NCBI GenBank assembly: GCA_965645245.1
Contig: OZ287087.1
Coordinates: 248,001 to 312,000, forward strand
DNA from: Massalongia carnosa
Lineage: Eukaryota
DNA length: 64,000 nt
Reading direction: 5' to 3'
In this document: in pieces, positions 27,536-59,538 of the stretch
How the letters are laid out: each line of letters starts with the position of its first letter
Numbering within the stretch: the stretch's first letter is position 1
Program-made: the position numbers and the translations under genes
Notes under the pieces: model-generated
The model's database searches: none
Seen by the model: the letters and a program-made list of their open reading frames with translations, nothing else
Told to the model about the DNA's origin: nothing

Positions 27536-30500
27536 TCATCCCACGAGTGCGGCTGGGTTCTTTGAAAAATTTTCTAGCAGTGTAATATAGCAACCCATCA
27601 TATTTTCAATATCCTCCTCCCGATACATGTACTTCTGGGCGGAGAAAGCAACAGCTTCAGTAACAGAGACTTGAAGATCCCAGGCACTTCGTGCATCGGA
27701 AATCTGGAACATCTCCATATTGACATCCCCTAACATGCTCTGTTTGTGAACGGCCGGGGTATAGCTGAAAAGAACTTGAAACAGGGGACTTTCAGTGGTC
27801 GATCTAGGGAATGTGAGGGAGTCAACCAGAACATCGAAGGGAATGCTAGAATGAGCCAATGCGGCGTAAATACTAGAGCGTGCTTTAGAGATCGTGGTTG
27901 TGAAGCTATCTGTGGCGTCAAGCGAAGCTCTGATTGGAAGCATATTCACAAAGAATCCAACGGTTTCTACATGATCGTGGTGCAAGCGATTGCTATCCGC
28001 GATGCCGATTGATAGATCTTTGGTAATTCCACCAAGAGTTTGGAATAACAAGACTTGTAGAGTAGCGGAGTAGAAATGGAATGGGGTTGACTTCAACTGC
28101 CCGCTAACATGTTTGATGCGTGTAGTGAGTTCTTCGTCTAACCATGCCCCAACGTTAAATGTATCATATCGTGTCAAAGGTTCGCGGGACTTGACAAGAG
28201 CAAAGGGAAAAAGGGGCATCGAAGGTGGTTCATCGGGATACTGGGCTTTCCAGAAGTCAATGTCATTTTGGAGATCCCGGTTGACAATGCTTTGCTGTTG
28301 TGTCGTGGTGAAATCAAGATACTGCTTCGCATCATCCACGGAGGTCAGATCTGCGCTGTATGCCGTGGCTAGATCCTTTAACATAACGTTGAGACTGACT
28401 TGGTCCATGACAATATGATGGTAGCAAAGCATAAGAATATAGGACTTTGTGGTTGGAAATATCTCAAATTTAATTGTTTCGCCCTGTTCAATATCGAATT
28501 CGTAGTTGCGGAGCCTGTCGAATTCGCCGAGTATAGCGCTCTCCTCCACGGTTTGCATTAGCTCTAGCTGCAATTTTGAAGTCCTCAGCACCCGCTGAGT
28601 TGGTTGACCAGTGATTTCGTCGGCATAGTACTGCGTACGTAACGACTCATGCCTTTGCGTAACTGCTTGAACGGCCTTTTCAAATCTTGTTATGTCAAAT
28701 GGACCGTCCAGTCTCCACGCCAGTGCAACATTGTAAGTACTCGGATCTTCTATAATGTTTGTAGCAAGAAATATGCGCCCTTGTGCATGAGACATATTCC
28801 CCTGGCGACTGAAAGAGGCATCGATAAGCTTATCACGGTTCATCATATCTGTGGTATCTGATGACGGTGTGGTAAGAGAACTTATATGCCCGTCAGATTC
28901 TGATGTAAAACTAGACGTCTCTGCGGAGTCTTGAGTAGCAGAGTCGTCAGTAGCAGAGTCGTGAGTAGCAGAGACTTGGAGGGTGGGAGTCCAAGGCATG
29001 GTCCAGGTCAATTTTCCAATAGCATCTTGACAAATTTGTGAAATCGAACTGCCACCAAGAACTCTGAGAATGGGTATATCGACATTCAACTCTTTCAAAA
29101 ACCAAGATCGAATGTCTACTGCGATCAATGAATCTATCCCGAGATCAATGATTTGAACGTTCTGGTGAATCTTGTCGAGCGGAGCCTGTAAAACAAGAGC
29201 AAGTTTGATTCTAAAGCATTCGACAAGTACAGAGACAGCCTCATCGAGAGATATTGTAGATTCAAGCTGAGTTCTGACAGGAACCATTTGGGTTACCTCA
29301 TGACTGATGACACTAGAGCTAATACTCTGGTGTATGATATGTGAAAACCTTGGATTTTCTGACCAAAGAGCAGCTAGTTCGCTTCTCTGCAGACCTGTCG
29401 TCAATAACGTACTTCGCCCTGAATCTGGACGTCCATGAATAATAGAAGCAGCAAACATTTGGTGATAAAGAGGTTCTGATATCGCGTTGAAGGCATTTGC
29501 GAGGAGAGATTTGTCAGCAAGTTCCGTTCGAGCAACATACCCAATTCCTACAATCATCCCAATTTGAATGACAGAGGCAGCTAATCCTCGCTTCCTTCGA
29601 TCCTCGGCCAGACCGGCCATGAACATACATCCTGCGCTGTAATTTGACTGTCCAGCGTTACCAACAACACTTGCTGCAGACGAAAACATGACGAAGAACT
29701 CAAGATCCTGAGCATAGAACAGCTCATCTAAATATCTGGAACCGTCAATCTTTGGCTTTATTGCTGTTTCCCAGGTCGACAAATCCATGTTTTGAAATAA
29801 GCTATCGCATAGGACCATAGCGCCATTTGCGATACCCCCCACGGGCGGCATTGTCTCGGCGATCTCATCTCGGAGGTGTTTGACAGCTTCCTTGTTGGTT
29901 ATATCATTTGCTATAACTTTGATAACAGCGCCGTCTCTAGATTGCTCCTCGATCCATTCCTTCTCAACGGCGGGATTACGGCTGGTAAGAACCAAGTATT
30001 TGACTCCACTAGCCACCATCCACTCAGCCAATGATCTTCCAAGCTCGCCGGATAAACCGAACAGGATATATGTCTTTATCGGAGAGAATAAATCCTTCGT
30101 CTCAAGAGGCCTTACCGAGACTTGAATCTGCTCTTTTTCCATCCAGTCAATAACATAAGTGTGACTGTTTGTCTTTTCTATGTCTGAAAGATTCTTGGCA
30201 TCCAAAGGGATCTCCTTTACGGTTTCAGATATCTTGGAGCGCTCAAGCGACTTTGAGCAAGCAGTTTTAAGAACCTTCTGTACTTCTCCGCTGGTACTGC
30301 TCGATTTGACTTTAGAATCATGTTCGAAAGTCGTAGCTAAAGTATGTGCAGAGCATTGATTGGGCAATGATGCTAAAATCTGATTAATGGCACCTCTTTC
30401 AGGAAATTCGCTCTCCGAAGACCTAGAGCAATCGACAAATTTCTTGATGCCTTTTGGAAGGCGAGATTTGATGCTTTTGATAGAGTCAAATTCATGAACA

Positions 30501-33500
30501 AAGATATAAGGTCTCGGGATACATCCTGATTTATCAGCCTCGTCAGTTGTGCAAATGATTTGCACTCCGATTTCGAGCCCTCGCTGTAGAATGACAGAGG
30601 CAAGCTGTGTATCTAACTTATGGAAAAGGACTGCATCTCCGGCAGTAGTCCCAGATAATACAACTTGAGCCAGGATGTGTTCTGCAGTGCAGCGCAAAAA
30701 TTCTTTTTCTCGTCCCGCAATCTCAGCATCACACTTGTATGTCCATTCTTCTCGCACCGTGATTGTCGATTGGTTTGACTCGGAAAGCGCCACCATCAAA
30801 TCCCCAGTTCTTGAATGGTTACCGAGACACACAAAGAGATATGAGTCGCCGCAAATATTTATTGAAAATGGCAACGAGAATTGAACGTCAATGTTAAAAA
30901 TCCCATACTCAGCATCAGAGAGTTGAGATGCAGGCTCTACTTGACGCAGAGGATGCTCTTCTGTCTGATGGAGAAGAGGTTCTCCTGATGTGAATTGAAT
31001 TTTGACGGGCTGGTCTTTCAGAGATACGTTTTCCATGATATTTCGTCGGGTTGAATTCAACTGATTATTAAGTGGTACGTTCGGGATCAGGCGAGGAATC
31101 ATCACAGCTCTCCCCTTTAGCGAAATTTCAGGCTCGTTTGTCCATAGATACTTTGAGTCAAGCGACTCCGCTGATACCAAGCGAAGCAAAGCGTCTACAA
31201 CCATGGCACATTCTGCGTTTTGGTAGTCAAGAACATCAAGCATTTGCAGATTTAATTGAGGGCACTCCATAAGCATTGTTCTTCCCAAACCAAGCATGGC
31301 GGTAGCATACGGGCCATCGACTCTAGTTGATGAATTAACCCAGAGAACATTTTTGGCCCGATTGAATATTTGTGCCAAGTGGTTCAGTTGGTGCTGAGTC
31401 AACTCTTTCAATACCGGTTGGTCGAGTTCTGTCATACACAGGAGAGTGAAATCATGCCCAACAGAGTTGATATCAAAGGAGTCGAGTGTCTTGAGATACT
31501 TGGCTTCATCGTTCCAGGTGTCCAAGTGTTGACAAATATTTTCGACAAATCTTGAAGTTTCAGGGTTGTTACCACCAACGACAATAAGATCTTCGATATA
31601 AGGCGCCATGAAAGAGTTCTTCAGAGGTTCTCGAACGAAATCTATTACTTCATCAACAGCTTGGCTTACCATTACAGAGAACGTCCGTTTCGTTGGTTCA
31701 TTGAGATCGTCCTTGAAACTGTCGACGCCCGAGAAACCTCTATCGCGCAACATTGAGTCCCATCGGTCCATAGAAATGGTTGGAGAGTAGCGCCTACCAT
31801 CTGATCCACCAGCCCACCAACCAGGTAGCCCAGACATGATAAGCTTCATGCGAAGTAGGTCACCCGTCACTTCGTTAAGAATGAGATAGCCTCCAGGACG
31901 TAAGAGGGATCTGACGTTGCTGATAGTCTCGGATAATTTTCGTGTAGCATGTAAGACGTTTGCTGCAATAACCATATCGAATGAACCTTCCGCAAATCCT
32001 TGAGAAGCTGGATCTTTTTCAATATCAAGCGGTTTGAAGATCACCCGTTCGTCGGCAAGGTTTCCAAGACTTTTCTTTGTCATTTCAAAGAAACCCGTTG
32101 ATATATCAGTGAAGGTATACGAGCACTTCCCATCCAATGCCTCTAGAACTCCTTTAGTTGTTCCTCCTGTCCCTCCCCCAATCTCGAGAATTCGCATGTT
32201 GGGGTAGCGGTGCACGATCTGTTTGATAAGACGTGATACAATCGCATTAACCCGTGGCGCACCTAGACCTTCCTTGTACAGCGTACCTAACATATCATCT
32301 TCTAGCATCACAGACAGCAAAGGGTCTTTGCCTGGCACGAAGGCTGGGAGAGCCTTTCCAACAGCCCTGATGAGCCTCATTTCGATTTGATTGGGGTATT
32401 TTTCAGCAACGGCGTCAATCTCCTTCTCTGTGTCATTCGCCCATTCTTCACGCAGAATCGGCTCATTACCTTCAGCAACCAAAGGGAGATAATAATCCGC
32501 AAACTCGAAGATGCGCTGATACCACCACTCGAAGCTTGCAGTCTCCTCATGTGAGAATTTTTCGCGTAAAGTACGAAGATAGTAGTATGAAGCGCGTTCG
32601 CAAGCGTCTACCAAATCAAGTTCCTCGACAAGATCCGGTCGAGAAATTTCAAGGTCAGGCGCGAGACCTGTAGAGATATCATGGTCCCAGCACGTCTCGG
32701 AGAAAAGTAAGCGATCATTTTCAGAAGTAGGTTTGGAGAAAGATGTGCAATGCAAGCCTTCCAGCTGGATTTCGAGTTTTCCATTCGATCCGAAAGCCTC
32801 CATATCGCCACTTAATGTTTTCGATGATCCCTCGCTAATTTGAGCATTGATTTCGACTATTGAGACATTCGTTTCACAAAGCATCGGATTGATGCGAAGG
32901 CGATCAATACTGACAGGGAGATACGTTGTCCAAAGTGTGCCATCACTAGGAAAGCAGAGAGCAGCAATTATTGATTGGAAACACACATCGAGTAAAGCCG
33001 GATGTACCATCAAGCCTGAGCTTGCAACCTTTCTAGTCGAAGCGCTTGCCTTCTTGCCCCTTCTTGAGATATGCTCGATTGTTCGAAACATATCCGTATA
33101 TTCGAGACCAATATCGAGCAAAGAATCGTAAAACTTCTCTGTGGTCACAGCAATTTTACTGGCTTCAACTTGGCCAGAGACTCTGCTTGGGAGTGTGTCT
33201 TCTGATGGGTTACCGAAAGTCACGTAAAGGCGACCCACTGCACACTTGTCCAGTGCACCTTTTTTTTCATCGTGGCATGAATAGCATGCGAAACTAGTAG
33301 CAATGATATCTGTATCATGATCATGATGGTTGAGGAGATTCAGGCTGAAGATGATCTCCGTTCCAGGATGATCTTCTTCCAAGGTTATTGCCTTGTGGAT
33401 TTGCAAGTCCTCGATCTCAACCAGCTTAACCGAACGTCCATGAAATAAAGTCTTAGAGGCTTCGAGAGCAAGGACTGCATAACCAGCGCCAGGGAAGAGC

Positions 33501-36500
33501 ACCTGGTTTTGGAAGCGATGCCCACGTAGCCATGGAATCTCGTTCAGCTTGAGAATATTCCGCCATCGCAGTTCATACGGTTCGAGGTCGTGGAACGACC
33601 TCACACCGAGAAGCTCATGGATTGGTTCATCTCTGTGCCGGAAATTCTTGGATATCCGTGACTCTTTCCAGTACGATTTGTCGTGATCGAAACAGTAATT
33701 TGGTAGATTTTTGAGGAGACGGAGTGTGGCGCGAGATTCAGCCTTGTCGGCAAATTCCTCTGCTACTGAGCGCGTAAAGCGGCTAAGATCCACAGCCGAG
33801 GCTCCGAGCTGCTCCCAAGTAAAGCCCAACGCCGACGAGAAGGCCACGGTGTCATTTTGATTGCGTCTCAGAAAGCTTTGGTATGGTACAGTATTTCCTG
33901 TCAAAGTCCGAATTGTTTGCGTCACGGGTCCTTTCAGCGCTGAATGCGGGCCGATCTCGAGAGCAAGGTCGTAGGGCCCAGAATGTGCGATTGCCCGCTC
34001 AATGGCTTGGGATAAGAGCACAGGATTGACCAAGTTCTCAATCCAGTACGTATCTGCCAAAGACTTCATATCGTGGCTGGCTAGGTCTATTTCTGCGTAG
34101 ACACTGGATACCCAGATTCTTTGGGTCGGTGCTTGTGGTTGTATGTTGCAACTTCGGAGAGATTGAAGATATGGTTGTACACAAGGCTGCATGTGGTGCG
34201 AATGGTATGCTTTATCAACTTTCAGCAGTCTAGCAAATGTTTTATCAGCATCGAGAAGTACTTTTATCTCGTTGATAGCTTCTGCATCTCCTGACAAGGT
34301 CACGGATGTTGGAGAGTTGCTCGCTGCAACTGCGACCCGACCCGTAAACTGTGGGCGCCGACAGATCTCGTGGCTTTCATCAAATGAGAGTCCAACAGCC
34401 ATCATGGAACCTTTCTGGCCGGACTGACCAGCACTCAGTACAGAATGAAGTCCTCGATAATATGCAATACGTATTGCGTCCATCGAGGATATAATGCCAG
34501 CTGCATACGTAGCTGCGATCTCTCCGGACGAGTGACCGATCACTGTGTGAAACGATATTCCCGTTGTCCTCAAAACATCGCATAAGGCCACTTGTATTGC
34601 TGTGCACAATGGCTGAGACAAGGCTGCCTCGCTAATACGAGAAGTTTCCTCCGTACGCTCCAATTCTTGTCTTAACGACCATAGAGGTGCATCAGGTAGT
34701 TCATCAAGTACCTTCTCGAGACTCCTAATCGAGTCAGAGAACACATGTGATCTTTTCAGGAGTTCCGTGCCCATTCTCGCCCACTGAGCACCCTGCCCAG
34801 TAAATACACCCAAGATTTTGACCGAATCATCCAAGCAATTATTTCGCGCGGCATGCGTGCCAAAAGATGATTCTGGGGAGTCTTTTACGATTTGAAGAGA
34901 GTCTCGTATCTCTGACTGCAGACTTTCAATATTGCTTCCAGAGAAGGATCTTTTGAATGGAAAGACATCTCGCCGGCTGTTCAAGGTCCACACTAGATCC
35001 ATTAAATTAACTTGGGGATTTGCGTCAAGAAAATCCGAGTAAGATCTCACTTGTGCCACAAGAGACTTGTCTGAGTTGGCAGAAAATACAAAAGGGACCA
35101 AACCGTTAGCGCGACTGGGTTCATACTTACCTGCGATGAGCGGAGTATGGTCTGATATCTCGTAACTCTCGAGAATAGCGTGGGCATTTGTACCCCCAAA
35201 TCCAAAACTGTTTACACTGGCCCTCCGTGGGCAATCTGCTGAGACATCAGGCCAAATTACTGGTGTTGTTGGAATCATGAGATTCCGTGTAAAAGGAGCA
35301 ACCTTTGGGCTTAGTGTGTTAAAAAGCATGTTCGGAGGTATGGTCTTATGCTGCAAAGCAAGCGAGGCTTTTATCAAGCCGGCGAGGCCCGCAGTTCCTT
35401 CGGTATGCCCGATAACGGTCTTAATAGAGCCGACGTAAAGGACATCATCAGACTCCATGGTTTTTTCGCTTGCACGCTCTTCACGGTTGAAAAATGCTGA
35501 GTTGATTGCTTCCGCCTCAATCGGATCTCCAGCCTGTGTTCCTGTTCCATGTGCTTATGGACGTCAGTGATTAGCCATAGCTAAACAATGTATTATACGC
35601 TTACCTTCGAAATATTGACATCTTTCAGCCTTCTTTCTACAGTCAAGTCCAGCCCGGGCATATGTGTCTCTTATCAATTGAGTCTGACTGATAGCACTTG
35701 GCATGGTGATTCCGGTGGTTTTTCCGTCCTGATTAACCCCAGTCTCTCGGATGATACATTCAATATGATCTCCATCCCGAATTGCGGCACTCAAGGTCTT
35801 CAAGATCACTGTCGCAAAACCTTCTCCACGGCCGTACCCGTCGGCACTTGAATCCCACATGCGTGATTTTCCGCTTTCCGACAGCATGTTCAGCTTTGAT
35901 TCGGATATGTAAGCTTCGGGACCAAAGATCAAGTTTGCGCCGGCAGCTACAGCCATGACGACGTTGCCGCTTCGGAGACTTTGGACGGCTTGGTGAACGG
36001 CTACAAGGGAAGACGAGCATGCGGTATCAATCGTCATAGACGGACCCCTCCAATCAAAGAAATAAGAGATCCTATTACTCATGATGCTACGAGCAGTTCC
36101 GGTTGCAGCATATCGAGGTAAGGTTTCCATATCGCGCACTTGGATGTCATAGTAGTCTCCAGCCATGAGACCAACATATACAGCGGTTTGAGAGCCTTGC
36201 ATTCCATTGATAGTAAGGCCGGCTGACTCGAGCCCCTCGTAGATCGTTTCGAGCAAGATTCTTTGCTGCGGGTCCATCGCATCCGCTTCCCGAGCGTTGA
36301 TGGAAAAGAATGAGGGGTCAAAAAGGCGAGTGTCCTCCGAAAGAAGATAGGTGTGCTTAACATTCGTGGACCCATGGTGCTCTCCAGACTCATGGAAAAA
36401 CCCGGCTGGGTTGAACCGTTCAGATGATAGAGGCGAGATAACATCTCGTGGAGCAGAGAGCAACTCCCATAGTTTTGACGGCGAGGTCGATTCTCCAGGA

Positions 36501-36562
36501 AAACGACATGCGCTTCCTACAATTGCTATTGGCTCCGACGGTGATGGTATAGAAGCTGTCAT
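27536..36562 (-). CDS. Highly reducing iterative PKS with C-terminal condensation domain (KS-AT-DH-cMT-ER0-KR-ACP-C), ~2,991 aa
   Basis: Exons 36562-35605 and 35553-27536; the 51-bp GT-AG intron 35604-35554 restores FE-AHGTGT. Motifs: KS DTACSSS/HGTGT/GHTEG, AT GHSSG/AYHS, DH HxxxxxxxxP and DVCFQ, c[20 protein letters not shown] and NYSAG, ACP GIDSL, C HHIVMD. Ends NPAALVG* with AT-rich 3' sequence and AATAAA. Confidence 0.95.
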
Positions 36563-37103
36563 TTCGAAAACTTGCAGATGAATGAGTTTTAAAGAGATCG
36601 AAATGAAGGCTGCAAAATAGACTAAAAAAACTTGGTCAGTCGATAAGGTATGTTGAAAGCTAATCGACCTTTGTTGAACTTTGAATTCTCTTGACAACGA
36701 CAGCGATGGTATTCACCATTTTATCCAAGTTTAGGTACTTATATTATAGGGATCGAATAGACTTTGCACCCCCTTAGGGTCGGCGAATTTTTTCTTGCTG
36801 TTCGGATGTTATGAAACTCATTTGAAACAGTATCATTCGGTGGCACTGTTACTCTGAACAATTGAAAAATTCGCCGATGTAATAAAGCGCCGAATTATCT
36901 CAATAATCAATTGGATAAACTGCTTACGCTATGTATAACATTGATTTGCGGTAAGGTACAAACGTCTTATGCATGTAGCAATCTTTTTACTTGAAGCTTC
37001 AACTATTAGACGATAAAAACAGTTAGGCGAAGTTTATGCTTCAACTATCTACCTATCGAACGAAATTCATTTCTAGACCAGTAATTGGACTATTCACAAA
37101 ACA
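36563..37103. promoter_or_regulatory. Bidirectional promoter shared by the PKS-C and NRPS-like genes, with CGCCGA elements
   Basis: 541-bp head-to-head intergenic region. Perfect 13-bp inverted pair TCGGCGAATTTTT (36780) / AAAAATTCGCCGA (36865); another CGCCGA at 36888. Confidence 0.65.
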
Positions 37104-40100
37104 ATGTCTACGCTGGAAGCACCAATAACGCCAACTAATCCAGATCAGTTGAATAACCTTGAGGCGTATTATTGTGACACCAAGAATAGTTTGCAGGTCT
37201 TTGAGCAAGAAGCAAGCACTGACGAAACCCAGATCGAGACTTCAAATCAACAGTCTGGGAATCACGCGCAGGAAAAACTTACTGAAGCGAGTGTCGAGGG
37301 ATTTTTAGCCGTAGACAGGTACGAAGAAGTGAAGAAATTTTGTGCCGAGTATAATGTTTCGACAACTCAAGCACTTGTTGCAGCTTTTCATGCCTTTCTA
37401 GTTCGTTGCACAGACGGGGAAGGCAGAAATACATACACGATATACGAATGTACTCAAGGGACATTCGCTGAGGGCTATTCATTGGAGATGTGTGATAATC
37501 TCCCCGAAAGCTTCAACGTTTTGATCCAGAATTCGAAGTCCCTTAGTCACCGCATGCGCGGGACTAAGACGACTCCTGGAAATTGCAAGTTGCTGTACGT
37601 ATTCAATGATAAACCCCTTGGCAGATCTATTTCGCTAATGTCTTCTCAGTTCCCAAGAGCTTATCTCGTCAAGCCTGTGGAACCTGGTTGTTGCTGATAA
37701 TGTCATTTTGGAAACCATTGGTAGTCCAAAGAAGGGTTTGAAACTACGCCTTACTTTCGAGTCAGAAGCGTACGAAACAGAGGAAATGAAACGCTCCATG
37801 GATAATTTTCTTGGTTTTTGGTCCAACATTATTGCAAGTCCCCACCAGTCGCTTCTCATGGTTCCTTTATGCGGGGACAAGGAGATCTCGATACAGCGGC
37901 ACTCGTACTGGGCTGATAGTGCTTCGCCAAATTCTTGGGACAACACAACCATCATTGATATAATTCTGAAGATTGCTCGCGAATATCCACAGAATACCGC
38001 CATTATAACCTCCGATGGTATGACTTTAACATACAAAGGATTGGTTCACCGTGCGCGAGAGATTGCTCTCTGCTTGCAAGAGGCGGGAACTTCCCCTGGC
38101 GATCTAATAGGGCTCCTCTGCCGTCCGGGCCTAGATGAAATAGCCGGAATGATTGCCATACTCATGAATCGCTGCGGATATGTAGCAATGGATCCAAATT
38201 TTGCTGGTGAAAGGCTCTCATTCATGGCGAACGATGCTAAGATGCGTATAATTTTAGTCACCCCTGACATGACTACACTCGGTACAGACGTAGCCCAGAA
38301 CAGCCTGTTGTCACCACGATTATTATCATTTCCCGAGCCTTGTCCAACGGACATCCACTTCACACCACCGCCTACTTCACCACAAGATCCGTTTTACACC
38401 ATTTACACATCTGTAAGAAGTTTTGTTTTGTGGAATCTTGTTTTTGAGGAATTTTGTTTTAGTGGAAACTTTGTATTGAATGATTTTCTTTTTGCGGAAT
38501 CGTCTGTTCGTGGAATTTTCTTTTTGTGTAGTCGTTTTTTGGTGCTATCCTAAGATCTCTCTGCTAACCAGAATTCTAGGGCTCAACAGGAACTCCTAAA
38601 GGTGTAGTGTTGACACAAGCAAATACTCAGCAGATGCTGTAAGGTTTTCTCCCCAAAACTGACTAACATATTTCCCTAACTAAGTTAGGAGCACCCTCCA
38701 CCACGATTACGAATTTTCTAGGTTCGACAGATTTCTGCATCACTCCTCGATGTGTTTCGATTTATCTATTGTAGAAATATTCGCCGCTCTTACTTGTGGC
38801 GCCGCAGCATGTATCGCGAGTGCACGAATCAAAGACGATCCTGAGCCTCTTGGATATTTCATGAGGCAGGTGTCGATTACGGTTACATACTTCACACCGA
38901 CCAAATTTGTATTACTTCTGGAAGCCTGCCAGGAATATCTTCAACAATGTCAAGAGTACCGCGTTGCCTTTTTCGCTGGTGAACGACTACCTGCACGAGT
39001 GATAGAACGATTTTATAATCTTCAGCTTCGTGCAACGATTTACAACACTTGGAGCCCGAGTGAGCTCGTTGTGCAAACGACCGTTCATAAAGTTCCAAGA
39101 ATTATTGCCAATAAGACAACGAACATTCCAATTGGATTCCCTCTGGCAAACTGCGCACATTATATAGTTGACTCAAATCTCAATCCTGTCCCTATCGGAG
39201 TCGTTGGCGAGATCTGTGTAGGAGGGGCACAAGTTGGCAGAGGCTATATCAACAAACCATATGGGAGATGCGAAGCATTCATCTCGAATCCATTTGCGTC
39301 AGAAGATTACACCCGAAAAGGTTGGACTATGCTCTTCAAAACAGGCGATAGAGGTCGTTTTCTTCGCAATGGAGAATTGGAGTTCCACGGCAGAATAGCG
39401 GGCGATAAGCAAATCAAACTCCGTGGCCTTCGGATGGATCTCGGCGAGATTGAGCAAAGAATCTTTGAGGCCTCTAACTGTAATGGTCTTGCAGGACTCA
39501 AAGATGTCGCTGTTACAGCGCGTTCAATTCAAAATCGCAAAACCAAGGAAGAAAGTATGACGGATGACCGCCAGCTCATAGCATTTCTTGTTCTCACAAC
39601 TGGAGTGACCGATATGGGACAAAATTATGTGAACACAGTGCACCAACTTCTCAAGGCCCATCTTAATAGATACATGTTGCCTAATGGTTATCAAATTCTC
39701 GAGACCTTACCGGTGACTATTGGCGGTAAATTAGACACTCGAAATCTACGAAATCGTGATTTAGATCTTCTATTCCCATCAAAGATAGGTGTACAGGAGG
39801 CGGACGACGGTAGAGCGGAAGTAGTTGACCGTGTAGTCGACCCAACACTCTTAACAATCACCAGTCTTTTTCAAACCTTACTGGCTCTTGGAGAGAATTA
39901 TCAAGTGGCTCCAGATGATAATTTCTTTGCCCTTGGAGGGCAGAGCATGTTAGTCCTCCGTCTTCAAGCCAAATTAAAGACAACATTTGGAATGAAGCTT
40001 CCTTTACCTAGTCTGTTCAAGGATCCAACACCTGCGGCCATTGCGCAGTTAGTGCAAAATAAAAACCCAGATGTGTCGGCCTTTTATACAACCACCAAAA

Positions 40101-41419
40101 ATGTTGCAAATCACCAGATTGACTGGCAGTTAGAGACTACGTTACCAAGTCAGAATGAGTTCCTTGCTCCACAAAACTTCACACGCTTAACTCGATCTGA
40201 CGTTACGACGGTTTTAATCACTGGTGCAGACTCGTTTATTGGCATTCATATGATTGCTACATTTCTGTCAACAGCACACTCAATGAAAGTGTTTTTCATA
40301 GGTTCTTCTCGGGCAATAACGCTGGCCAATCTGAAGATCAGTCTAGCAAAATATCAACTCCTCGATGATACTTGGTCAAACCTTCCATCAAAATTGACAC
40401 CTATTAACGGCACTTTGGCCGAACCATACTTTGGGCTAAACGAAAAAGATTTCAAGGTCCTTGGAAGCGCACTTCATGCTATCTACCACATTGGGGGCGA
40501 AGTCTCGCTCCTAAAGTCATATTACGACCTCAAGCCTTTCAACATTTCGCCAATCCTGACGTTAATTTCGCTTGCCCACTACGGTTCCTACCTCACTGAA
40601 ATCCATTACTTGTCCACATGGAGCGTCCCCCATCTGCAAACCTGGCATGACACGCACCTTGCAAAAAGCGCCATCTCCTCTAGCGAAGAATCGACCGACC
40701 ACTTTGTGCCCTCCAGCTCCCCAACCCAAGGAGGCTATCTCAAAGCCCGCTGGGCTAGCGAAGTTCTCCTAACTCGAGCCTCTGAGCGTGGCTTTCGCGT
40801 CTCCATCTATCGGGCCTCGGCGGTAACCGCCAGTTCAGCAACAAAGGTGCCGGAACCAATGTATGATCTCTACCGCTACACAATCATTCGCATGATCCAA
40901 GTGCGGTGCATACCTGACACTCAGGTGACCTCACGTTTACCCTTCGCTGTTGATTTTATCCCGGTCAATTATCTTACCTCGACTTTGTTCCGACTCAGTC
41001 TCTCCTTCCCAGCTGCTCTTCCAATGGACAAGCACGGAGAGAAAGCACCAACGATCTACCACATCGGAAACCCTAGCCCGCTCTTACTCCACGATCTGCC
41101 ATCCCTCGTGCCTCAAATCCTTCGGCAAGATGATATCGAATTAAAAGCAGACATTCTGCCCTTGGAGGAATGGCTAGCCGCGATTGGTACGGGACTGGCT
41201 GCAGGAGAAGAGCTACGAATTGCAGCTATTCGAGAAATGTTCTGTGGAGGGCATTGTTCGTTTGCCCTTGATCAAACTAGGACAACGGCGACTTTGGCGC
41301 TCTTGGACAAGGCAGCTGAGGAGAATGAAGGAAGTGTACCAGGGGGGGTAAACTGTCGGGTTGATTGTTCTCCTGTCGGAGTGGAATACCTGAGAGCTAT
41401 GTTAGAGAACAGCTGGTGA
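37104..41419 (+). CDS. Stand-alone NRPS-like enzyme: partial C lobe - A - T - R/R*, ~1,347 aa
   Basis: Exons 37104-37594, 37650-38412, 38580-38638 and 38689-41419; GT-AG introns with CTAAY branch sites give one continuous frame. A motifs YTS-GSTGTPKG, FDLS, FAGE, GEICVGG, FKTGD, GRIAGDKQIKLRG, GGKLD. T domain FFALGGQS. Terminal SDR-like domain. Confidence 0.9.
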
Positions 41420-42047: not shown

Positions 42048-43978
42048 TCATCCTCTTAGATTGGTCTTTGAGCCATCTTGATCATGATGCTTCCCGTCAT
42101 TCAGTCCTTGCGCAGTGTCTAGCGCCACATCCAGACTATAATGCTTGGTGAAGCAGCTTGCGATTAAGGCAACGCCGGAGATGGCGCATATAACGGCCCA
42201 TACGCGCTGCAAGCCAATGGCAAACGCTTGGATTAGCTGCGCTTTCTGCGGCAGATCGTGGGGCATTGTTTTGATGATCTGCACTAGAGCAGCGGCACTT
42301 TTGCTGTATGAATCGGCCTGCGGGGCGAGCAAAGGGTACGTCAAAAGGCTTTTTCTAAGCTCATTTTGGAAGACAACGCCGCCGACGGCAACGCCGACGC
42401 CCTGGCCGAACGTGCGAAAGAAAGAGAAGAGTGAGACGGCAAAAGCGATGTCGGCGGGCTTACTGGCGGCTTGTATGGCGAAGGTGAGGCCTGTAAAGAG
42501 CAGGCCGAGACCGACGCCGTTGATCAAATTGATGAAGATCCATTCCACGGTGGTGGTGTGGACATCGAGCAGGATCATGAGGCCAACGCCGACGGTGGTG
42601 ATGAGCCAGCCGGCCCAGAGCGACCAGCGGTAGACCCCAATCTTGGACACGATGATCCCACAGGCGATGGCCGTGGGGATCACGGTAAAGGATTGCGGGA
42701 ATGTGGCAACGCCAGCCATAATAGGGGAGAGATCTTTGACGGCTTCATAGTAGAGCGGGAGGAAGTAGAGGATGGACCAGAGCTAATGCGGTAATTGTTA
42801 GTTGAAGAGATTAATAGAAAAGGTTAAGGGAAACGTACTAAAACTCCATGAACGAATGATCCAATATATGTGACTATGCCCGTACGATTGCCAAACACGG
42901 AAAGCCGAATTACGGGTTCCGCAGCGATAAATTTCTCATATAGAACAAAGCTGATGAGACCGCTGGCGCCGATGACAAGAGGGACAAGGGTACGCCAGCT
43001 CGACCACGGATAGATGACACCGCCCCAGGTGAGCGGGATGATGAAGCTAGTCAGGGAAGCGATAAACAGCGCCGATCCGAGCCAGTCTATCCGGCGGAGC
43101 TTCTTCATCAGTGACTGCGGGACGAAATGAAGTCTCAGAAAGAGCGTGATCATTACGAATCCTACAGTGCATAGCGGGAGGTTGATCCAGAAAAGCCATA
43201 CCCAAGATGCTGTTCACATCATCTTTCAGCATTGTTCTAGGAACCTGATTAATCTTCCGGAATGTATAATCATACACACCTTTCTGCGCAAGGCCGCCGC
43301 CAACGAGCGGTCCCGCTACTGTTCCAATAGCCCAAATACTGTTTAGAATACCGAGCCATGCCCCTCTTTGTCGGAGCGGGATGAGATCCGTGATCAAGAT
43401 CTCATTCAGCGCTATAACGCCACCACCGCCGACCCCCTGCAACGTTCGCCCTACGATCAACACGGTGAAATTCTTCGCGACCGCAGCCACGATTGAACCA
43501 AGCGTGAAGAAAATCAAAGCGACAATGACCTGTACTCGTCCCGTCAGCGAAAAATTTTTATATATATACTAGGGAAAACGCAAAGAATATGTACAGATGC
43601 ATGAAGGGGACGACAGACCAGGGGTTTCCGGCCAAATATATGAGAAAGCGAAGCGAAGTTAGGCTGGAAGACGGTTGAGGTGAGAAGAAAAGAAGTGCCC
43701 GACCAGAAAGCTTCGATAGCCGTGCCGCCCAGGTCTTGAGAGATGATGGGGAGTGCAACGCTCAAGGAAGTCGCGTCCAGCGCGACAACGAGTATGACAG
43801 TGCACAGGCTGATGAGCGCAGAGTAGAGTCTTCGCCCCGGTTTGAAGTCGAGCTGCCTTTTGTCCGTTTCCAAGGTCATGACTTCTATAGTTGGCCTTGG
43901 GAATGCCACTTCGTCGATGTCATCATCCTTGATGCTTTCAGTTAGTTCTAACGACCTGTGGTGAGCCGGTGAGTCCAT
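42048..43978 (-). CDS. MFS drug:H+ antiporter (DHA2/14-TM type), multi-exon
   Basis: LVVALDATSLSVALP, SHIFGRKP, GRTLQGVGGGG and GPLVGG motifs, plus many TM segments. First intron 43618-43530; further introns near 43.2 and 42.8 kb not precisely mapped. Confidence 0.9.
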
Positions 43979-44289
43979 GTCGTGTGGAATGGAAGATGAT
44001 AGATATGAGGAATACGCAGCTAGGAGGTTGAATAGAAATGAGGAAGTAGACGAGGAGAAGCGGAAAGAGAAGGGAAATGCTTAGAAATTCACACTACTCG
44101 GTGTTATGGGATTCGTCTCGGATGCCATAAAATACAGGGGATCAATACATATCTACGCGTCTTAATCGGCCCGCCGACGGCTGTTTTGGGCCTTATCAAG
44201 GGGATATCATCTTGTGGCATTTTCATGCAGTCACAGCGACTATTCGACTGTTACGCTAATCTGGCAAGAGTCTAGTTAAATACATTCAT

Positions 44290-45501
44290 TCAATCCATGA
44301 GACTACAAACGAGCTTTTCGCCTCTCACATTTCCAAGCTTCAACTCTTCAATTCCACCAATAACCGCGTTCAATCCACCAGGTAAAATGTTCACCTGATG
44401 TGGCACCAAGACCCCCCTTTCAAGCAACTTCTCCGCCTTTCGAAACCATCCGACTGCAAAATTGTAGTCTCGAACATCAGCCATCCTCCTAAAGTCTCCA
44501 TCCATCACGACTTCCTTTCCAAACATTGTGAGCATCATAACCCAGTCTGTGCTCACGTTTTTACGCGTTGCTGCAACGCCCTTGGATGGCGGCTCGAGAG
44601 AGACGTATTTACCACCTTTGGGGCCAAGGGCGCTATAGCAAAGGCGCATGCTTTCAATGTCGGAAATGCAGTCTAGGACGTATTGTAATTTACCTTTGGT
44701 AAAGGCGCGGATTGCAGTGCCGTATGACACTTTGGTGTAGTCAAAAGCTTTAATGGCTCCAAGTTTCTCCATTTTCGGGAAATTAGCAGCCGAGCAAGTC
44801 ACTATGGGTATCAGGCCGGATCTTTATTGCAACTTTAGTTGATATTCTTCCTGCGAAATACGATCTTGCTTCCATTTGGATTGATGAACGAGGGATACTT
44901 ACAGCTTCGCCAACTGGAGAGCAATGGTTCCAGTTGCTGTGTTTCCGCCATGGATGAAGATGTATTGCTGAGCTGGAGAATTAATCTCCTTAGACCTCTC
45001 GCTAGGTTCAATGGGCATGGGCAGCTTCAGGCACTGATAGAGTCCAATTCCAGCAGTCATGACACCAACTGGCAAACTCGCTGCGTCGGTCATGCTCATC
45101 CCCACGCCGAGAACGGTCGGAACTAACATCACCAAGTTTGCGTCCACGGCGATGTATTCTGCAAAACTTCCCGCCCACTGTCCATCTTCTAATTTAGGAT
45201 TCAAGCCGTACAAGCACCCACATACCTTATCCCCCACGCTCACGGTAGCCGTGACGTCTTTTCCGATAGCACAAACGACACCAGAGAAGTCATTTCCTCC
45301 TACGACGCCTATAGGCGGTAGGGTATCGATCATCTTCCAGTTTGCAGGATTCAATGCAACCGCGAATACACGAACCAATACCGACTTGGGAGCGAGAACG
45401 GGCAGCGGATGTGTGTTAACAATTTCGTATTTCCCAATTGCCTTGGCAATTATAGCTTTTTGAGAAGCCGGAAGCTCTGTTTGATGGTAGGGCTGCGGCA
45501 T
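44290..45501 (-). CDS. Trans-acting enoylreductase (LovC-like MDR family), ~376 aa
   Basis: Exons 45501-44903 and 44821-44290 (intron GTAAGT...AAG). Motifs VRVFAVALNP..WK, GNDFSG, GSFAEY, HGGNTATG, TCS..NF, LDCIS, VRGEKLV. It fits the apparently inactive ER0 of the neighbouring PKS. Confidence 0.9.
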
Positions 45502-46357
45502 CGATAATATCAAATTTGATTTTTGAGGAGATGTGTTGTTCGCTTTTTCTGCCGATGGGCATGGACTCGATGATGGAATAAACTCAAGAATAACTATCGT
45601 CAATAAAGCGGAATCAGGTACAAGAATGTGACGAGCTCTGGGGGACCAAGGTTGACTCCTGACAAGCTTGTAATCTAGCGCTGCGCTGTTGATTCCAGCA
45701 TGAAAACGTGGCAGCAAATATCGGCACGTAAGTTCGGCGTAAGCAGGAAAGTACAGGAGGGCTGAGATACTGTGCCTGACCGAATCCAACGCTAACGCCT
45801 AAGAAATTTTACCGAGAAAATATGTCGCCGAATATTAATTTACGATTAATCCGCCGAACCAGAGATTAGGCTGAAACTGGGGGGAAAGAAAAACAATTAT
45901 TGAAAAACCTTGACAATAAAAGAAAACACTGGAAAATAAAACTTGAGGCAAAACAGAAACCTCACACATATCAATGAGGAAATATTTTTGGTTCATGTCA
46001 AGCATGAGACAAGAATAAACATAATTTTTTTCATGATTAGGTGTAATCATACCGTATTGATTTTGTTAAGAAAAGCATTTGATTGAACGAGTATCCTTGA
46101 CTGCATGATCGTCGATGTACATACTCCCGATGTACAATACGCAGGGAGTGGGGCACAGTCAAGTGATTAGAGTGGCTTTAATCTCGAGCTCTTTAACGTT
46201 ACAGTCGGCTATTTTGACTTTGGAAACCGCGGGGTCGACGAATGGTTGTGTCAGAATCGAGACGTCATTTAACACAAAAAACACAAAAATGGAGCTGAAA
46301 AATATCTGCGCTGAATACCCCATCGCGAGATTGCTTGTAATATGTGTTGACTTTATA

Positions 46358-48224
46358 CGGAGGCGAATCTCAAAAGTAATGATAATACGCTAAAGACTAG
46401 CGCCGTAATTTAGATTTTCCATACCGAGCCTGAAATTCTACCAACTATCTACAAATGCCATTACCAACCATCTAATCAACGTCTTTTTGGTCTGAAACTG
46501 GCTGCAGTACGAACCACCTTTTGAATGCGTGGGGGAAGGTGATTTTTCGGAGATAAAACGGCTCTTTTTCTCAATAAGGGGGGTGTCAATGGCTTCTGTG
46601 TAGGGGGCTCAGGGGTAACTGCCCTGACATTCAACGGGCTGGGTGTATCATCATTTGATTGTCTGGATGATAGTCTCGTTGACACCACAGAAGAAGAAGA
46701 AGAAGAGAAGAAGCTGGTTTTGCTGTATTACTGAGCAATTCTTCCCTCAGCTGTTGAAGTCGCATTTTTCCTTCTTTGGTCCGTCCATCAACGTCCAAAC
46801 GTCCTTCGCAATACTCATTTCCACCTTCCAATTCAATGACTTTTGCAATGTGACGTGGAATTCTTTCAATCCATGCCTGAATGTTCTCCTGAGGTATATC
46901 GTCCCAAGTGCGATGCCACATAGATTCAGCAATTAACCGAGAACTAGGAGGACCTTTGGCAGTTGTACGCCGCTTCATCCAGGGCCAGCAGGGTTCAATC
47001 ATGTTGAGATCAGGAGAATTTCCGGGCCATAAAAGACGCTCGATGCCATGACGAGAGAAGATGGGAATCTGATGCTTGGAAGCATGAGACGGAGCCTTAT
47101 CTTCCTGTACGATCATTTCAGACAATCCGGCTTCTCTTCTTTTTGCATTGCATTGCTGAGCAAAAGGAATCAGTTTTGGCAGAAGTATGAAGTTTTGATA
47201 CCGCCACCAATCCATGCCTCCTTTACCTTCTTTTCTGATCATCTTTCCATGTTCCTCATCCCATTTCCATTGCGGCTTTTTTCCTGGTAAATTGCGAGTT
47301 GAAAGACGTCTCATTCCATTGGTCAGCTCCCAATTTAATCTCTCACTGGCTTCCAATGCAGCATTCATCTCGTCAAGCTTGGTTTTGGCTTCCGCTTTTT
47401 CCGCTTTTGTCTCCGGTTTCCAGCAATGACATGGCCCCTTCCAATCGTAGGAAAAGCATCCCCAAAACATGAATTCATGAGCCCCATGCCACCTAGCACG
47501 TACGGTGGATTTCACTGGTCTTCTTCCTTCCTTGGTTGTACGCCAAATTTTGACAGCTCCGCGACGGTGACCAAGCACTATTGCTGTTTCATCTGACCAA
47601 ATAACCCGCTTCCAATCCTCCACGGTCCAGTCTTTATACAGGAGACAAAAAGCCAGTCTAGCCGCTTTCATTTCAGGAGTAAGCCCTGGTCTATACGACG
47701 GTTTGACTTTTTTATAGCCTCTTTGTTTCAGGATTCTCCACACGGTGCATCTGGACAGTCCAACTTCTCTTGCCAACTGGGCACTGGTTTTTTCACGGGC
47801 GTATCTGTCTTTTATGACTAGATCAATGACTTCATCTACTTTCTCAGTAGTAGCCTTTCTCGGTCGACCAGATTTTTCTTCATGACGGGCGTATTTACCA
47901 AGCACCTGCAAAGAAATGGTGGGATCAAATCCTCGATCCCTGGCAATGCGACGAATACGATAAATGTTGGGGACAGAATAACCTGTAGTAGCTGCAATAA
48001 ATTCAATTGAGGCCGGGGTGCAATAAGACAACGTCAAGACCTGAGCCCGCAAAGAAATATCAGCTGATTTATTGACCATGATGATGATTTGATCAAATGT
48101 TGGTTCGTAAATGATTTGGGATGAGAAAAGGGGAAAGAAAAGGGGAAAATTTGCTCGGTACGGAAAATTTAAATTACGGCACTAGCTTTTAGCGTATTAT
48201 CATTACTTTTGAGATTCGCCTCTG
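46358..48224 (-). mobile_element. Tc1/mariner DD34E transposon with intact transposase ORF
   Basis: ~72-bp TIRs (C(G/A)GAGGCGAATCTCAAAAGTAATGATAATACGCTAAA...), TA TSD at 46356-7 and 48225-6. Confidence 0.95.
46631..48079 (-). CDS. Tc1-family transposase, 482 aa
   Basis: GRPRK, HTH, WSDET, QEDKAPSH and SPDLNMIE, with 34 residues between the second D and E. Confidence 0.92.
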   Translation of the reverse strand: MVNKSADISLRAQVLTLSYCTPASIEFIAATTGYSVPNIYRIRRIARDRGFDPTISLQVLGKYARHEEKSGRPRKATTEKVDEVIDLVIKDRYAREKTSAQLAREVGLSRCTVWRILKQRGYKKVKPSYRPGLTPEMKAARLAFCLLYKDWTVEDWKRVIWSDETAIVLGHRRGAVKIWRTTKEGRRPVKSTVRARWHGAHEFMFWGCFSYDWKGPCHCWKPETKAEKAEAKTKLDEMNAALEASERLNWELTNGMRRLSTRNLPGKKPQWKWDEEHGKMIRKEGKGGMDWWRYQNFILLPKLIPFAQQCNAKRREAGLSEMIVQEDKAPSHASKHQIPIFSRHGIERLLWPGNSPDLNMIEPCWPWMKRRTTAKGPPSSRLIAESMWHRTWDDIPQENIQAWIERIPRHIAKVIELEGGNEYCEGRLDVDGRTKEGKMRLQQLREELLSNTAKPASSLLLLLLWCQRDYHPDNQMMIHPAR

Positions 48225-48281: not shown

Positions 48282-50003
48282 TTACATCCTAGCTGTTTTT
48301 CTTATAAGTTTCCTGATGTTCTCCGTGTTCTCTCGTAACTTTTCAGACCTATCTTCCTTCATGACAAGGTCCATTACTTGAAGGACTGGCATTTGTGTAC
48401 CCAAGCCACCGAGTTCATTCAGATCCGGTCTCTCCAAATAGTTCTCAATCTGACTAACCATATGTAGGCTGGTTTCAACAATTATACTTATCTGAAGTGT
48501 TCCATTGTTGGATGGTTTGAAACCCCCTAATTCCAGGAATGGCAGAATCTCCGGCAGCATTAATCCATCAGGGGCGGAGAGGTAGTCCTCTAGTATTCGA
48601 ACGCAACGGGCGAAGAGGACGCTATAGACTTTTATTAGGCGATTGTAGCATGTGATAACCAGGACCATGATCGGGATATCTAATCGGAGGAGGTTTGATG
48701 AGTCTGCCCCTTTTAGCGAGTTTGAAGATGGCTCTTTTTGTAACGACGAGTGTGGCGGTGTGAGTAAATAGCTGTTCGTACTCGACGATGGAATATTTCG
48801 TGTATCTTCGTTGAAGGAATGAGCAGAGCGGGTCGGATTTGTCGATGGCCCTAGACTATCAGAGATCATAAGAATTGAGGGGGACGAAAATGGTGAGTTA
48901 GGGGAATGGTCAATCAACTGAGCTTTTAAGGATGAATGAGGCTGGACGCCAGCATAAGGGTCAGGGACAGTGGTGAAAGGTCGGCCTGTAGAGACCGGCT
49001 TGATGGACCTCAATATCTGAATTAGTTCTTCTGAGATACAAAATATTTCTCCTACAGGATTTATCCTGTCATTGGAGACATCATATGCTGCAAAGCTACC
49101 TGTAAGCTTGGGTTGCTGGGAAGAGGATGATAATGCTTTGACCAAAGAGTCGGACGAAATGACCTTCAACTGCTTAGAAAGGCGTATGATTATTTTTGAG
49201 AGTAGCACCATACATTCTTCTTTTGCATTAGAAGGCGTATTGTCTCCATATTTTCGATCGATGTCGTTAGAACCCGCTTGATGAGCCGAGAGAAAACACG
49301 GAAGAGGGCCAGAGTTCCTAGTATGAACTTTCGGGTTTTCGTGGAGCGTAGAAGACTCGCTGGAAGATGAGTTCTTGAACTGTGCGTAATCGTCGGCTGA
49401 CAAGGATGCTGGCGGTGAGCTCGGGAAATTCAAGTCGTCAAAAAGTGTGGCACCAGTTGATAAAACAAAATCTTCACTAGCATCGTCGTGTGAAAGTCTA
49501 CCGCTGTTCGATAGGATAGTATCTGTGGGGTTAAGATTGTGAGGGGAGGCATCCCCAGAAAAGAATGTCGTCTCGGATATTGATGGCGGATCCTGTTGAC
49601 ATATCTGATGTACATCAATCACATCTTCTTCATCGAAATTAGCACGCTTCTCTCTTGTTTCCTTTGATGTAACTTTACTCCATAAATTCTCATCTGAAAT
49701 GGTTCTATCATGACACGGCTTTGAAGTTTCCGTCCAGTCCATCTCTATCTCAGTTTCACATCGCTGTCGTTTTCGACTTGAATCCCCCGCGTTCGGGCGG
49801 TTTTTCTGTCTTGACGTGACTGGCGGCCGCCCTAGCTGCTCCGGAGGGCTGTATACACAGGCAACACGGGCTCGCTCACAACGAATACAAGCTTCCCCAT
49901 TTCTATGAGATGAACTATTCCGTGTGCATCGTAGCTTTTGAATATGACAACGGTCACAGGCAAATCTTTTGTATGGCTCTTCTTGATTCTGTCTTTCACC
50001 CAT
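48282..50003 (-). CDS. Zn(II)2Cys6 cluster-specific transcription factor, ~573 aa
   Basis: ACDRCHIQKLRC-x12-CIRCERARVAC immediately after ATG 50003; single open frame; Ser-rich middle region. Confidence 0.9.
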   Translation of the reverse strand: MGERQNQEEPYKRFACDRCHIQKLRCTRNSSSHRNGEACIRCERARVACVYSPPEQLGRPPVTSRQKNRPNAGDSSRKRQRCETEIEMDWTETSKPCHDRTISDENLWSKVTSKETREKRANFDEEDVIDVHQICQQDPPSISETTFFSGDASPHNLNPTDTILSNSGRLSHDDASEDFVLSTGATLFDDLNFPSSPPASLSADDYAQFKNSSSSESSTLHENPKVHTRNSGPLPCFLSAHQAGSNDIDRKYGDNTPSNAKEECMVLLSKIIIRLSKQLKVISSDSLVKALSSSSQQPKLTGSFAAYDVSNDRINPVGEIFCISEELIQILRSIKPVSTGRPFTTVPDPYAGVQPHSSLKAQLIDHSPNSPFSSPSILMISDSLGPSTNPTRSAHSFNEDTRNIPSSSTNSYLLTPPHSSLQKEPSSNSLKGADSSNLLRLDIPIMVLVITCYNRLIKVYSVLFARCVRILEDYLSAPDGLMLPEILPFLELGGFKPSNNGTLQISIIVETSLHMVSQIENYLERPDLNELGGLGTQMPVLQVMDLVMKEDRSEKLRENTENIRKLIRKTARM

Positions 50004-57072: not shown

Positions 57073-57077
57073 CGCTA

Positions 57078-59536: not shown

Positions 59537-59538
59537 TA

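Follow-up and report, generated by a model that had tools for sequence, protein, structure and literature searches.

A divergent gene pair of Massalongia carnosa probably encoding a two-protein polyketide synthase-nonribosomal peptide synthetase of mosaic origin

A 64,000-nucleotide stretch of Massalongia carnosa DNA (contig OZ287087.1 of assembly GCA_965645245.1, positions 248,001 to 312,000), referred to here as the window, carries two divergently transcribed genes that together hold the parts of a hybrid of a polyketide synthase (PKS) with a nonribosomal peptide synthetase (NRPS). The PKS-C gene encodes a highly reducing PKS (HR-PKS) ending in a condensation (C) domain, and gene 2 encodes an adenylation (A) domain, a thiolation (T) domain and a reductase-like release (R) domain, preceded by half of a C domain (half-C). 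Gene models, independent contigs, clade-wide comparisons and trees, taken together, suggested a two-protein hybrid that is conserved, of mosaic origin and probably functional, and whose NRPS partner carries a dead half-C. In our preferred reading, to which we give a probability of about 0.55, the two genes encode a non-covalent PKS-NRPS in which condensation would take place in trans.

Gene models and domain organisation

The coordinates of both genes and of their domains are shown in Table 1. The single intron of the PKS-C gene (35604-35554) was 51 nt long with GT-AG borders, and the spliced model gave, by Pfam and motifs, the HR-PKS domain order KS-AT-DH-cMT-psiER-KR-ACP-C. A complete set of HR-PKS motifs and an intact HHxxxD in the C domain had been claimed in an earlier note on this DNA, and both were confirmed by Pfam on the spliced model and by the motifs DTACSS, EAHGTGT, GHSSGE, GIDS and HHIVMDQ. 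In the DH motif the usual Gly was replaced by Asn and the His was retained. No enoyl reductase (ER) family of Pfam matched the stretch between cMT and KR, where the psiER part gave only a weak match to PF23114, and the ER of this PKS was therefore taken as inactive or absent. The stop codon (27536-27538) was found 2 residues past the C-domain match; having no A-T-R on the same chain, the protein is by this test not a one-piece hybrid. The C domain was not evolving unusually fast, the ratio of its identity to that of KS-AT-DH being 0.64-0.75 as compared with 0.66-1.01 for the other pairs listed.

Gene 2 began with an ATG at 37104 and all its introns had GT-AG borders. The earlier note had taken this gene to supply exactly the A-T-R missing from the PKS, which was not borne out, because hidden Markov model (HMM) searches, tblastn and identity values all placed a decayed C-terminal lobe (C-lobe) of a C domain at its N-terminus, within the ~270 residues located upstream of the A domain. 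This relic has neither the N-terminal lobe (N-lobe) nor the HHxxxD motif. It gave a weak Pfam Condensation match confined to the last part of the profile (positions 397-450 of 456, E 0.07), and aa 74-273 of gene 2 matched the N-terminus of P0073, a separately annotated relative (BLASTP, E 4e-12). An HMM of 454 positions, built from the C domains of 92 hybrids, matched the relic weakly and in a colinear manner (aa 60-105 to positions 231-276 and aa 199-239 to positions 409-449), and tblastn aligned aa ~56-420 to the C-lobe and the start of the A domain of one-piece hybrids. The breakpoint of gene 2 thus corresponded to the boundary between the N-lobe and the C-lobe (HMM positions ~191-234).

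The relic was only 23-27% identical to the C-lobes of fused relatives and had lost ~40 positions, while the start of the A domain of gene 2 was 33-42% identical to these relatives, as close as they are to each other; among themselves, seven fused relatives shared 42-77% in the C-lobe and 34-63% in the first 150 aa of the A domain. The frame of the relic was open over 270 codons, which was not the case for any of 20000 shuffles (0/20000), and the five other frames had 8-21 stops. The relic is therefore probably still translated; catalysis appears to have been lost, and its remaining role is probably limited to scaffolding the A domain. A predicted complex between the PKS C domain and the first 163 aa of gene 2, which comprise half of the relic and whose own fold was uncertain, had a score of 0.00, a value that bears on binding in neither direction.

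The nearest relatives of the gene 2 A domain were NRPS modules of hybrids, and the Asp of the FDLS motif was kept. The specificity code of this domain, placed by hand on GrsA numbering, is presumably close to D-L-V-Y-F-A-T-V-Q-K. A cluster search of a protein atlas for proteins of the gene 2 type returned only generic A-T-R clusters.

The layout in independent contigs

Contigs were taken from four public runs, belonging to three studies, and compared with the window over positions 25500-42500. Two runs of one organism were identical to the window, and a run bearing a second organism label (X4) gave identical pieces, one of them bridging the start-codon junction (36497-37218). From a lichen metagenome run of a separate study we obtained a 30,495-bp contig that was colinear with positions 27378-42500 and contained both genes, with 775 differences over 14.2 kb (~5% diverged). 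The six indels listed for this contig, out of 6 + 18, were all noncoding: two were located past the PKS stop, one in the intergenic region, two in an intron and one past the stop of gene 2.

The gene models agreed with the head-to-head arrangement and the 541 bp between start codons that the earlier note had reported, and the split proved to be genuine, as contigs from three studies spanned its junctions. We consider it virtually inconceivable that an assembly error or a false inversion produced this layout from a one-piece hybrid, given that these contigs covered both the 3'-end of the PKS and the head-to-head junction, that the stop was found at the same residue in 12 independent relatives, and that the two halves came from different lineages, as described below.

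Conservation of the pair

We found 12 relatives of the PKS C-domain region, with 67-77% identity (67-79% as the overall range). Their large-exon open reading frames (ORFs) were 2487-2625 aa long, an AMP-binding domain was present in none of the 12, and the reading frame ended at the same residue in all of them. In five of the 12, the PKS and A-T-R homologues were on contigs of equal size (32671, 14461, 15042, 24196 and 26726), which we took as a sign that both genes were on the same contig; where this is the 14.5-kb contig, the genes have to be adjacent, since both could fit in no other way. Gene order and orientation were read from the window and from the colinear ~5% diverged contig. The named relatives in the A-T-R family included the lichen fungi Wetmoreana, Letrouitia and Lobaria. 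When protein representatives were searched with the C domain, the best 150 matches, ranked by summed scores, were nearly all multi-C NRPSs of the bacterial type, and the whole PKS-C clade corresponded to one 50% representative (P0135).

The mean identity of the clade to the window was highest in cMT (89%) and KR (88%), followed by AT, DH and the C-lobe of the C domain (78% each), T (77%), ACP (74%), R (73%), A (72%), the N-lobe of the C domain (69%) and psiER (62%), and it fell to 46-47% in the linkers. Domain identities far above linker identity indicated that the pair is under selection. In the PKS clade, HHI[IV]MDQ and the ACP motif GIDSLIAV were kept in 13/13 sequences; in the A-T-R clade, GGQSM, the core motifs of the A domain and TGADSF[IV]G were kept in 9/9, and GGYLKARW in the eight sequences with data (8/8).

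The PKS and A-T-R trees gave the same two subclades, and contig-linked pairs behaved alike in both of them (P0136 and P0137 were sisters, as were P0010 and P0009), indicating joint inheritance of the pair throughout a clade that comprises at least 13 sequences. The real architecture, the conserved stop, the kept motifs and this co-divergence together would fit a working two-protein system. In the A-domain pocket, P0009 and P0010 had FDVSVEEIF and NAWGPSE in place of the FDLS[IV]VEIF and NTWSPSE found in the other seven sequences, suggesting that the amino-acid substrate may differ in that branch.

Mosaic origin of the two genes

According to the earlier note, a single hybrid had been split into two genes. 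Our results did not bear this out: simple fission of one hybrid was rejected by the identity values and by both trees, which placed the halves in different lineages. For the identity values, lineage X was represented by the hybrids P0174, P0184 and P0180, and lineage Y by metagenome loci fetched for this work. The PKS shared 55-56% identity in KS-AT-DH (57% by global alignment) with lineage X against 32-38% with lineage Y, 43-53% (52-53% for P0174 and P0184) against 26-31% in KR-ACP, and 39-41% against 26-31% in the C domain. For gene 2 the relation was the opposite, with about 30% to lineage X and 46-61% to lineage Y in the A domain, and 23-29% and 37-45%, respectively, in T-R; the half-C relic had no match in lineage X and shared 21-33% with lineage Y. 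The A-T-R modules of lineage X were at most 31% identical to gene 2, and among the best 45 longer proteins listed for its last exon no identity exceeded 30.4%.

A search with the KR-ACP-C region returned 12 clade members (72-79%), followed exclusively by other fungal hybrids, the best non-clade matches being two one-piece proteins of Penicillium angulare (42-43%). In the KR-ACP-C tree, which holds 91 fused sequences, the clade (n=13, support 1.0) was sister (0.97) to the fused proteins P0395, P0174 and P0184, whereas in the tree of A-T-R sequences the clade (n=9, support 1.0) was sister (0.87) to the fused L003 together with P0017 and P0053. These results indicate that the PKS-C is the remnant of a lineage-X hybrid most closely related to one-piece hybrids of Penicillium angulare and Beauveria bassiana, and that gene 2 is the remnant of a lineage-Y hybrid cut between the lobes of its C domain. 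With the PKS-C in lineage X and gene 2 in lineage Y, the pair is a natural cross-lineage mosaic, better described as assembled from the remains of two hybrids than as one hybrid that was split, and its members have since co-diverged.

The family of gene 2 comprised ~90 ORFs with 41-51% identity that carried the R motifs TG[VAL][DE][ST]F[IV]G and GY[FL]K[STA]RW, as compared with TGATGFLG and GYxxSKW in other hybrids; gene 2 belonged to lineage Y by its R motifs, by the identity of its A domain and by its position inside the family tree. Twenty metagenome loci carrying this family were fetched. In 14 of them the gene 2 relative was the 3' portion of a same-strand, one-piece PKS-NRPS, three were too short to judge and three were distant NRPSs; the 14 one-piece loci amounted to ~10 distinct sequences, because L001, L002 and L012, and likewise L005, L006 and L007, share coordinates. 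In L003 and L004 a single ORF (2947 and 2905 aa, respectively) ran from the KS through the C domain into the A domain, the domain set of L003 being KS-AT-DH-ER-KR-ACP-C-A, with a cis ER and without cMT.

Lineage Y (L001, L003 at 1080-12700, L004, L005, L008, L010 and L013) was observed as widespread one-piece hybrids that have a cis ER, lack cMT and carry Arg at the position of the catalytic Lys in the R domain. We know of no characterised member of this lineage. L001, L002 and L012 came from differently named metagenome records with identical coordinates and identities, one of the records being titled bioreactor metagenome, and they are probably one fungus sampled three times. In L014 (6242-9092), another lineage-Y locus, a KS match (query aa 7-307) was followed almost directly by ACP-C (query aa 2315-2917), which looks as though a large internal stretch of the PKS had been deleted and C-A-T-R kept.

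The whole 64 kb was searched by tblastn with four A-T-R modules of lineage X and two PKS parts of lineage Y, and outside both genes only noise was obtained (E of at least 0.07). No X-type A-T-R relic and no Y-type PKS relic are left in the window. The claim of the earlier note that the PKS ends after its C domain with no A-domain relic behind it is upheld by this search and by the stop shared with 12/12 relatives.

Separately annotated half-C-A-T-R proteins

Four half-C-A-T-R proteins of 1363-1403 aa were found as NCBI annotations in Penicillium viridicatum, P. malachiteum, Aspergillus felis and Xylaria sp. FL1042. With the hybrid C-domain HMM, the separately annotated relatives matched through the C-terminal lobe only (P0077, positions 191-451, E 1.5e-23; P0065, positions 226-452, E 1.8e-13; P0073 and P0064, two C-lobe fragments each). 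In the A-T-R tree the four annotated proteins formed part of a different lineage-Y subclade, beside the fused L001, so that, if the annotated gene models are right, the same cut at the lobe boundary appears to have arisen at least twice in lineage Y. It is conceivable, although we regard it as rather doubtful, that the half-C-A-T-R cassette is a naturally portable unit that can be plugged non-covalently into an unrelated PKS ending in a complete C domain. If this were true, the cut at the lobe boundary would leave a stable protein for amino-acid loading and release, in which the relic lobe would be retained to scaffold the A domain or to offer a docking surface.

Proposed mode of action and its alternatives

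In the non-covalent system that we propose, the HR-PKS and a LovC-like trans-acting ER would build a methylated, reduced polyketide on the ACP of the PKS, and the A domain of gene 2 would charge the T domain of the same protein with an alpha-amino acid, the type of substrate expected from the retained Asp of FDLS. The polyketide and the aminoacyl-T presented by the gene 2 protein would then be joined by the intact terminal C domain of the PKS, and the R-like domain would release an N-acyl-aminoacyl product. Dieckmann-type release domains have lost the Tyr of the catalytic triad, which is Leu in CpaS (PMC3202784), and reducing R domains keep Ser-Tyr-Lys (PMC5667575). The R domain of gene 2 is not of the Dieckmann (R*) type by this Tyr, which was kept in the eight clade members with data (8/8) and nearly throughout the family. 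Judged from these residues, release seems weakly more likely to be reductive, giving an aldehyde and then a pyrrolinone or an amino alcohol, than to occur by Dieckmann cyclisation. A precedent for action in trans exists, since dissected ApdA modules worked in trans and the ApdA PKS worked with the CpaS NRPS (PMC4994942).

Several observations weigh against the proposal. In the HHxxxDG motif of the PKS C domain the Gly is replaced by Gln, while Gly was present in 71 of 92 hybrid C domains. Alignment of the gene 2 R domain to those of MxaA and PsoA showed that the Tyr was kept and the catalytic Lys replaced by Arg, and in the nucleotide motif GxxSxxG there was a Ser at the middle Gly. In the NRPS modules whose structures have been solved, C and A form one platform; here they are on different proteins, and the relic C-lobe may occupy the usual C-A interface. 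With a C domain from lineage X and a T domain from lineage Y, mutual recognition had to be acquired. [quoted passage not shown]

The alternative that we take most seriously, though we still think it unlikely, is that gene 2 alone reduces an amino acid to an amino aldehyde or alcohol, and that the C domain of the PKS off-loads the polyketide onto this free amine, as in TwmB. PKS-C enzymes using a free amine are known, TwmB being the example given in PMC11731387 and PMC13492342; moreover, gene 2 has A, T and R with the Tyr kept, its sequence lacks a working C domain of its own, and the co-conservation of the pair would fit equally well. However, gene 2 descends from the NRPS modules of in-line hybrids, whose T domains serve a C domain, its R domain has no canonical Lys, and in the PKS C domain both His of HHxxxD are present, the second of which is Pro in TwmB (PMC11731387). 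A more remote option is that no amide is formed at all, the PKS-C resembling LovB or ClaE, its C domain having a role other than amide formation, and gene 2 either being a carboxylic-acid reductase that acts on the polyketide after its release or having an unrelated role. A-T-R genes located in the clusters of fungal PKSs are often interpreted as carboxylic-acid reductases (PMC8403587), and LovB-like C domains are essential without forming an amide (PMC13492342). The latter, however, have HRxxxDG (PMC13492342) where the PKS of the window has HH, and the A domain of gene 2 retains the Asp that binds the alpha-amino group and is 46-61% identical to the amino-acid modules of hybrids.

It would be more surprising still if the pair were the decaying remnant of two broken hybrids and made nothing. 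Transposons flank the cluster on both sides, a Tc1 transposase is located inside it and gene 2 carries a decayed half-domain, all of which would suit such a history; against it, both reading frames are intact, the catalytic motifs are all kept in 8-13 clade members with 64-79% identity, the linkers evolve much faster than the domains, the six listed indels of the ~5% diverged contig are all noncoding, and even the frame of the relic is open over 270 codons, as in 0/20000 shuffles.

Comparison with known systems

One-piece PKS-NRPS hybrids are the rule in fungi (PMC2823734). TenS, CcsA, PsoA and ApdA have the same overall domain set as the pair and the same helpers (a LovC-like ER, a pump and a Zn2Cys6 factor), one-piece hybrids share 55-57% identity with the PKS of the window in KS-AT-DH, and its PKS-C nests among the 91 fused sequences of the KR-ACP-C tree. 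In contrast to them, its chain ends after the C domain, and A-T-R is encoded by a separate, divergent gene of another hybrid lineage. LovB, ClaE and TwmB resemble it as HR-PKSs with a terminal C domain, no A-T-R on the chain and a trans-ER. The C domains of LovB and ClaE have HRxxxDG (PMC13492342) where the window has HH, and the architecture of TwmB matches the PKS-C, except that its second His is Pro whereas both His are present in the window (PMC11731387). Unlike LovB, ClaE and TwmB, the PKS of the window has a co-inherited A-T-R gene alongside it.

Separately encoded fungal PKS and NRPS partners have been described, namely ThmA/ThmB (thermolides), XyaA/XyaB and ValA/ValB (PMC11731387). As in the window, the polyketide and amino-acid halves of these systems are on two proteins of one cluster. 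The NRPSs ThmB, XyaB and ValB carry C domains of their own (PMC11731387), whereas gene 2 has only a dead half-C and the predicted working C domain is on the PKS. The halves of the window pair, in contrast to pairs of the ThmA/ThmB type, come from different lineages. Acurin A is reportedly made by a separate PKS and NRPS (AcrA and AcrB), for which fission of an ancestral hybrid is said to have been proposed, and AcrB is likewise said to have its own C domain.

In the XUC concept of bacterial NRPS engineering, exchange units are cut inside the C domain, and a C-lobe fused to a foreign N-lobe gives a working C domain. The cut in gene 2 is similar, being at the boundary between the lobes with the C-lobe staying with the A domain; it differs in that the lone C-lobe of gene 2 has decayed and a complete foreign C domain is on the partner protein. 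Module swaps made in the laboratory (the ApdA PKS with the ApdA or CpaS NRPS, CcsA/Syn2 and 34 swaps by Kakule et al.) are also cross-lineage combinations that worked, or were intended to work, as two parts (PMC4994942); they were cut in the ACP-C linker with the C domain staying with A-T-R, whereas the natural cuts of the window were after the C domain in the PKS and between the C lobes in gene 2.

A literature search covering sources outside subscription journals and supplements found no PKS-C paired with a half-C-A-T-R and no natural cross-lineage pair, so that the specific layout had no described match there; the general idea of a fungal PKS and NRPS on two proteins is less new than the earlier note implied, because ThmA/ThmB, XyaA/XyaB and ValA/ValB had already been published (PMC11731387). 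Evolution appears to keep a clade-wide partnership whose C domain remains on the PKS and whose A-T-R comes, on a second protein, from a different hybrid lineage. Enzyme engineers seek sites where modules can be cut and recombined, and usually treat C-A as an inseparable platform. If the pair works as proposed, it would be a natural template for non-covalent, cross-lineage PKS/NRPS combinations. The pair further points towards a nitrogen-containing polyketide, so far uncharacterised, from fungi that are probably lichen-forming and whose hybrid PKS-NRPS products are, to our knowledge, almost unknown.

Helper genes, shared upstream region and transposons

The trans-ER, the MFS exporter and the Zn2Cys6 factor that the earlier note had placed alongside the pair were corroborated by Pfam, LovC being the best solved match of the ER (Table 1). 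The Tc1/mariner-type transposase ORF located between the ER and the regulator is an insertion and lies outside the pathway. Further tailoring genes were not found among the ORFs of the window that were scanned. The region shared by the two start codons contained a perfect 13-nt inverted repeat, TCGGCGAATTTTT at 36780-36792 and AAAAATTCGCCGA at 36865-36877, with 72 nt between the arms; these contain CGG and are candidate sites for the Zn2Cys6 factor of the cluster.

Table 1. Features of the gene pair, the helper genes and the surrounding transposons in the window
Feature	Position	Strand	Remarks
PKS-C gene, 2991 aa	27536..36562	-	exons 36562-35605, 35553-27536; single stop in spliced frame
KS domain, intron-spanning	35327..36535	-	PF00109 + PF02801; DTACSS, EAHGTGT, GHTE
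AT domain	33836..34807	-	PF00698, E 1e-51; GHSSGE
DH domain	32723..33619	-	PF21089 + PF14765; His retained
C-methyltransferase (cMT) domain	31727..32233	-	PF08242 + related families
KR domain	29552..30073	-	PF08659, E 1.5e-51
ACP	29027..29203	-	PF00550; GIDS serine at 29129-29131
Condensation domain, complete, two lobes	27545..28795	-	PF00668, profile 7-440/456, E 4e-62; HHIVMDQ at 28400-28420
Shared upstream region, 541 bp between start codons	36563..37103		holds 13-nt inverted repeat
Gene 2, 1347 aa (half-C relic, A, T, R)	37104..41419	+	exons 37104-37594, 37650-38412, 38580-38638, 38689-41419
Decayed C-terminal lobe of C domain, aa ~60-245, broken by 55-nt intron	37281..37893	+	HMM, BLASTP, tblastn
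Adenylation domain, spans two introns	37969..39764	+	PF00501 on both pieces; YTSGSTGTPKG, FDLS, NTWSPSE, FKTGDRG, GGKLD
Thiolation domain	39857..40054	+	PF00550, E 6.5e-10; GGQS serine at 39944-39946
Reductase-like release (R) domain	40217..41416	+	PF07993 (NAD_binding_4), E 2e-30; TGADSFIG, GGYLKARW
MFS / TRI12-like transporter, several exons	42048..44080	-	PF07690, PF06609
Trans-acting enoyl reductase, LovC-like, two exons	44290..45798	-	PF08240, PF00107; best solved match LovC, E 1.4e-22
Tc1/mariner-type transposase ORF, 516 aa, apparently intact	46631..48181	-	PF01498, PF13358; between ER and regulator
Zn2Cys6 transcription factor	48282..50378	-	PF00172
Gypsy element	3991-7989		
Copia element	14700-19064		
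Tc5/pogo pieces	25985-26869		
MULE/SWIM and DDE pieces	beyond 53000		

The 64-kb window is fungal and rich in transposons, between which the compact cluster is located. The region immediately 3' of the PKS stop (25500-27200) was a high-copy repeat, with a summed contig word depth in the thousands as compared with ~500-900 over the genes. A flanking transposon was considered as the cause of the truncation of the PKS and rejected, because the ~5% diverged contig had the same stop and departed from the window only at 27378, 158 bp downstream. At the other end of the window, two ORFs with a SWIM finger (56062-57078 on the + strand and 59532-60539 on the - strand) had identical Pfam scores and coordinates on opposite strands, and each of them adjoined a piece of MULE transposase (55480-55998 and 60603-61295, respectively), an arrangement that looks like an inverted duplication of a Mutator-like element.

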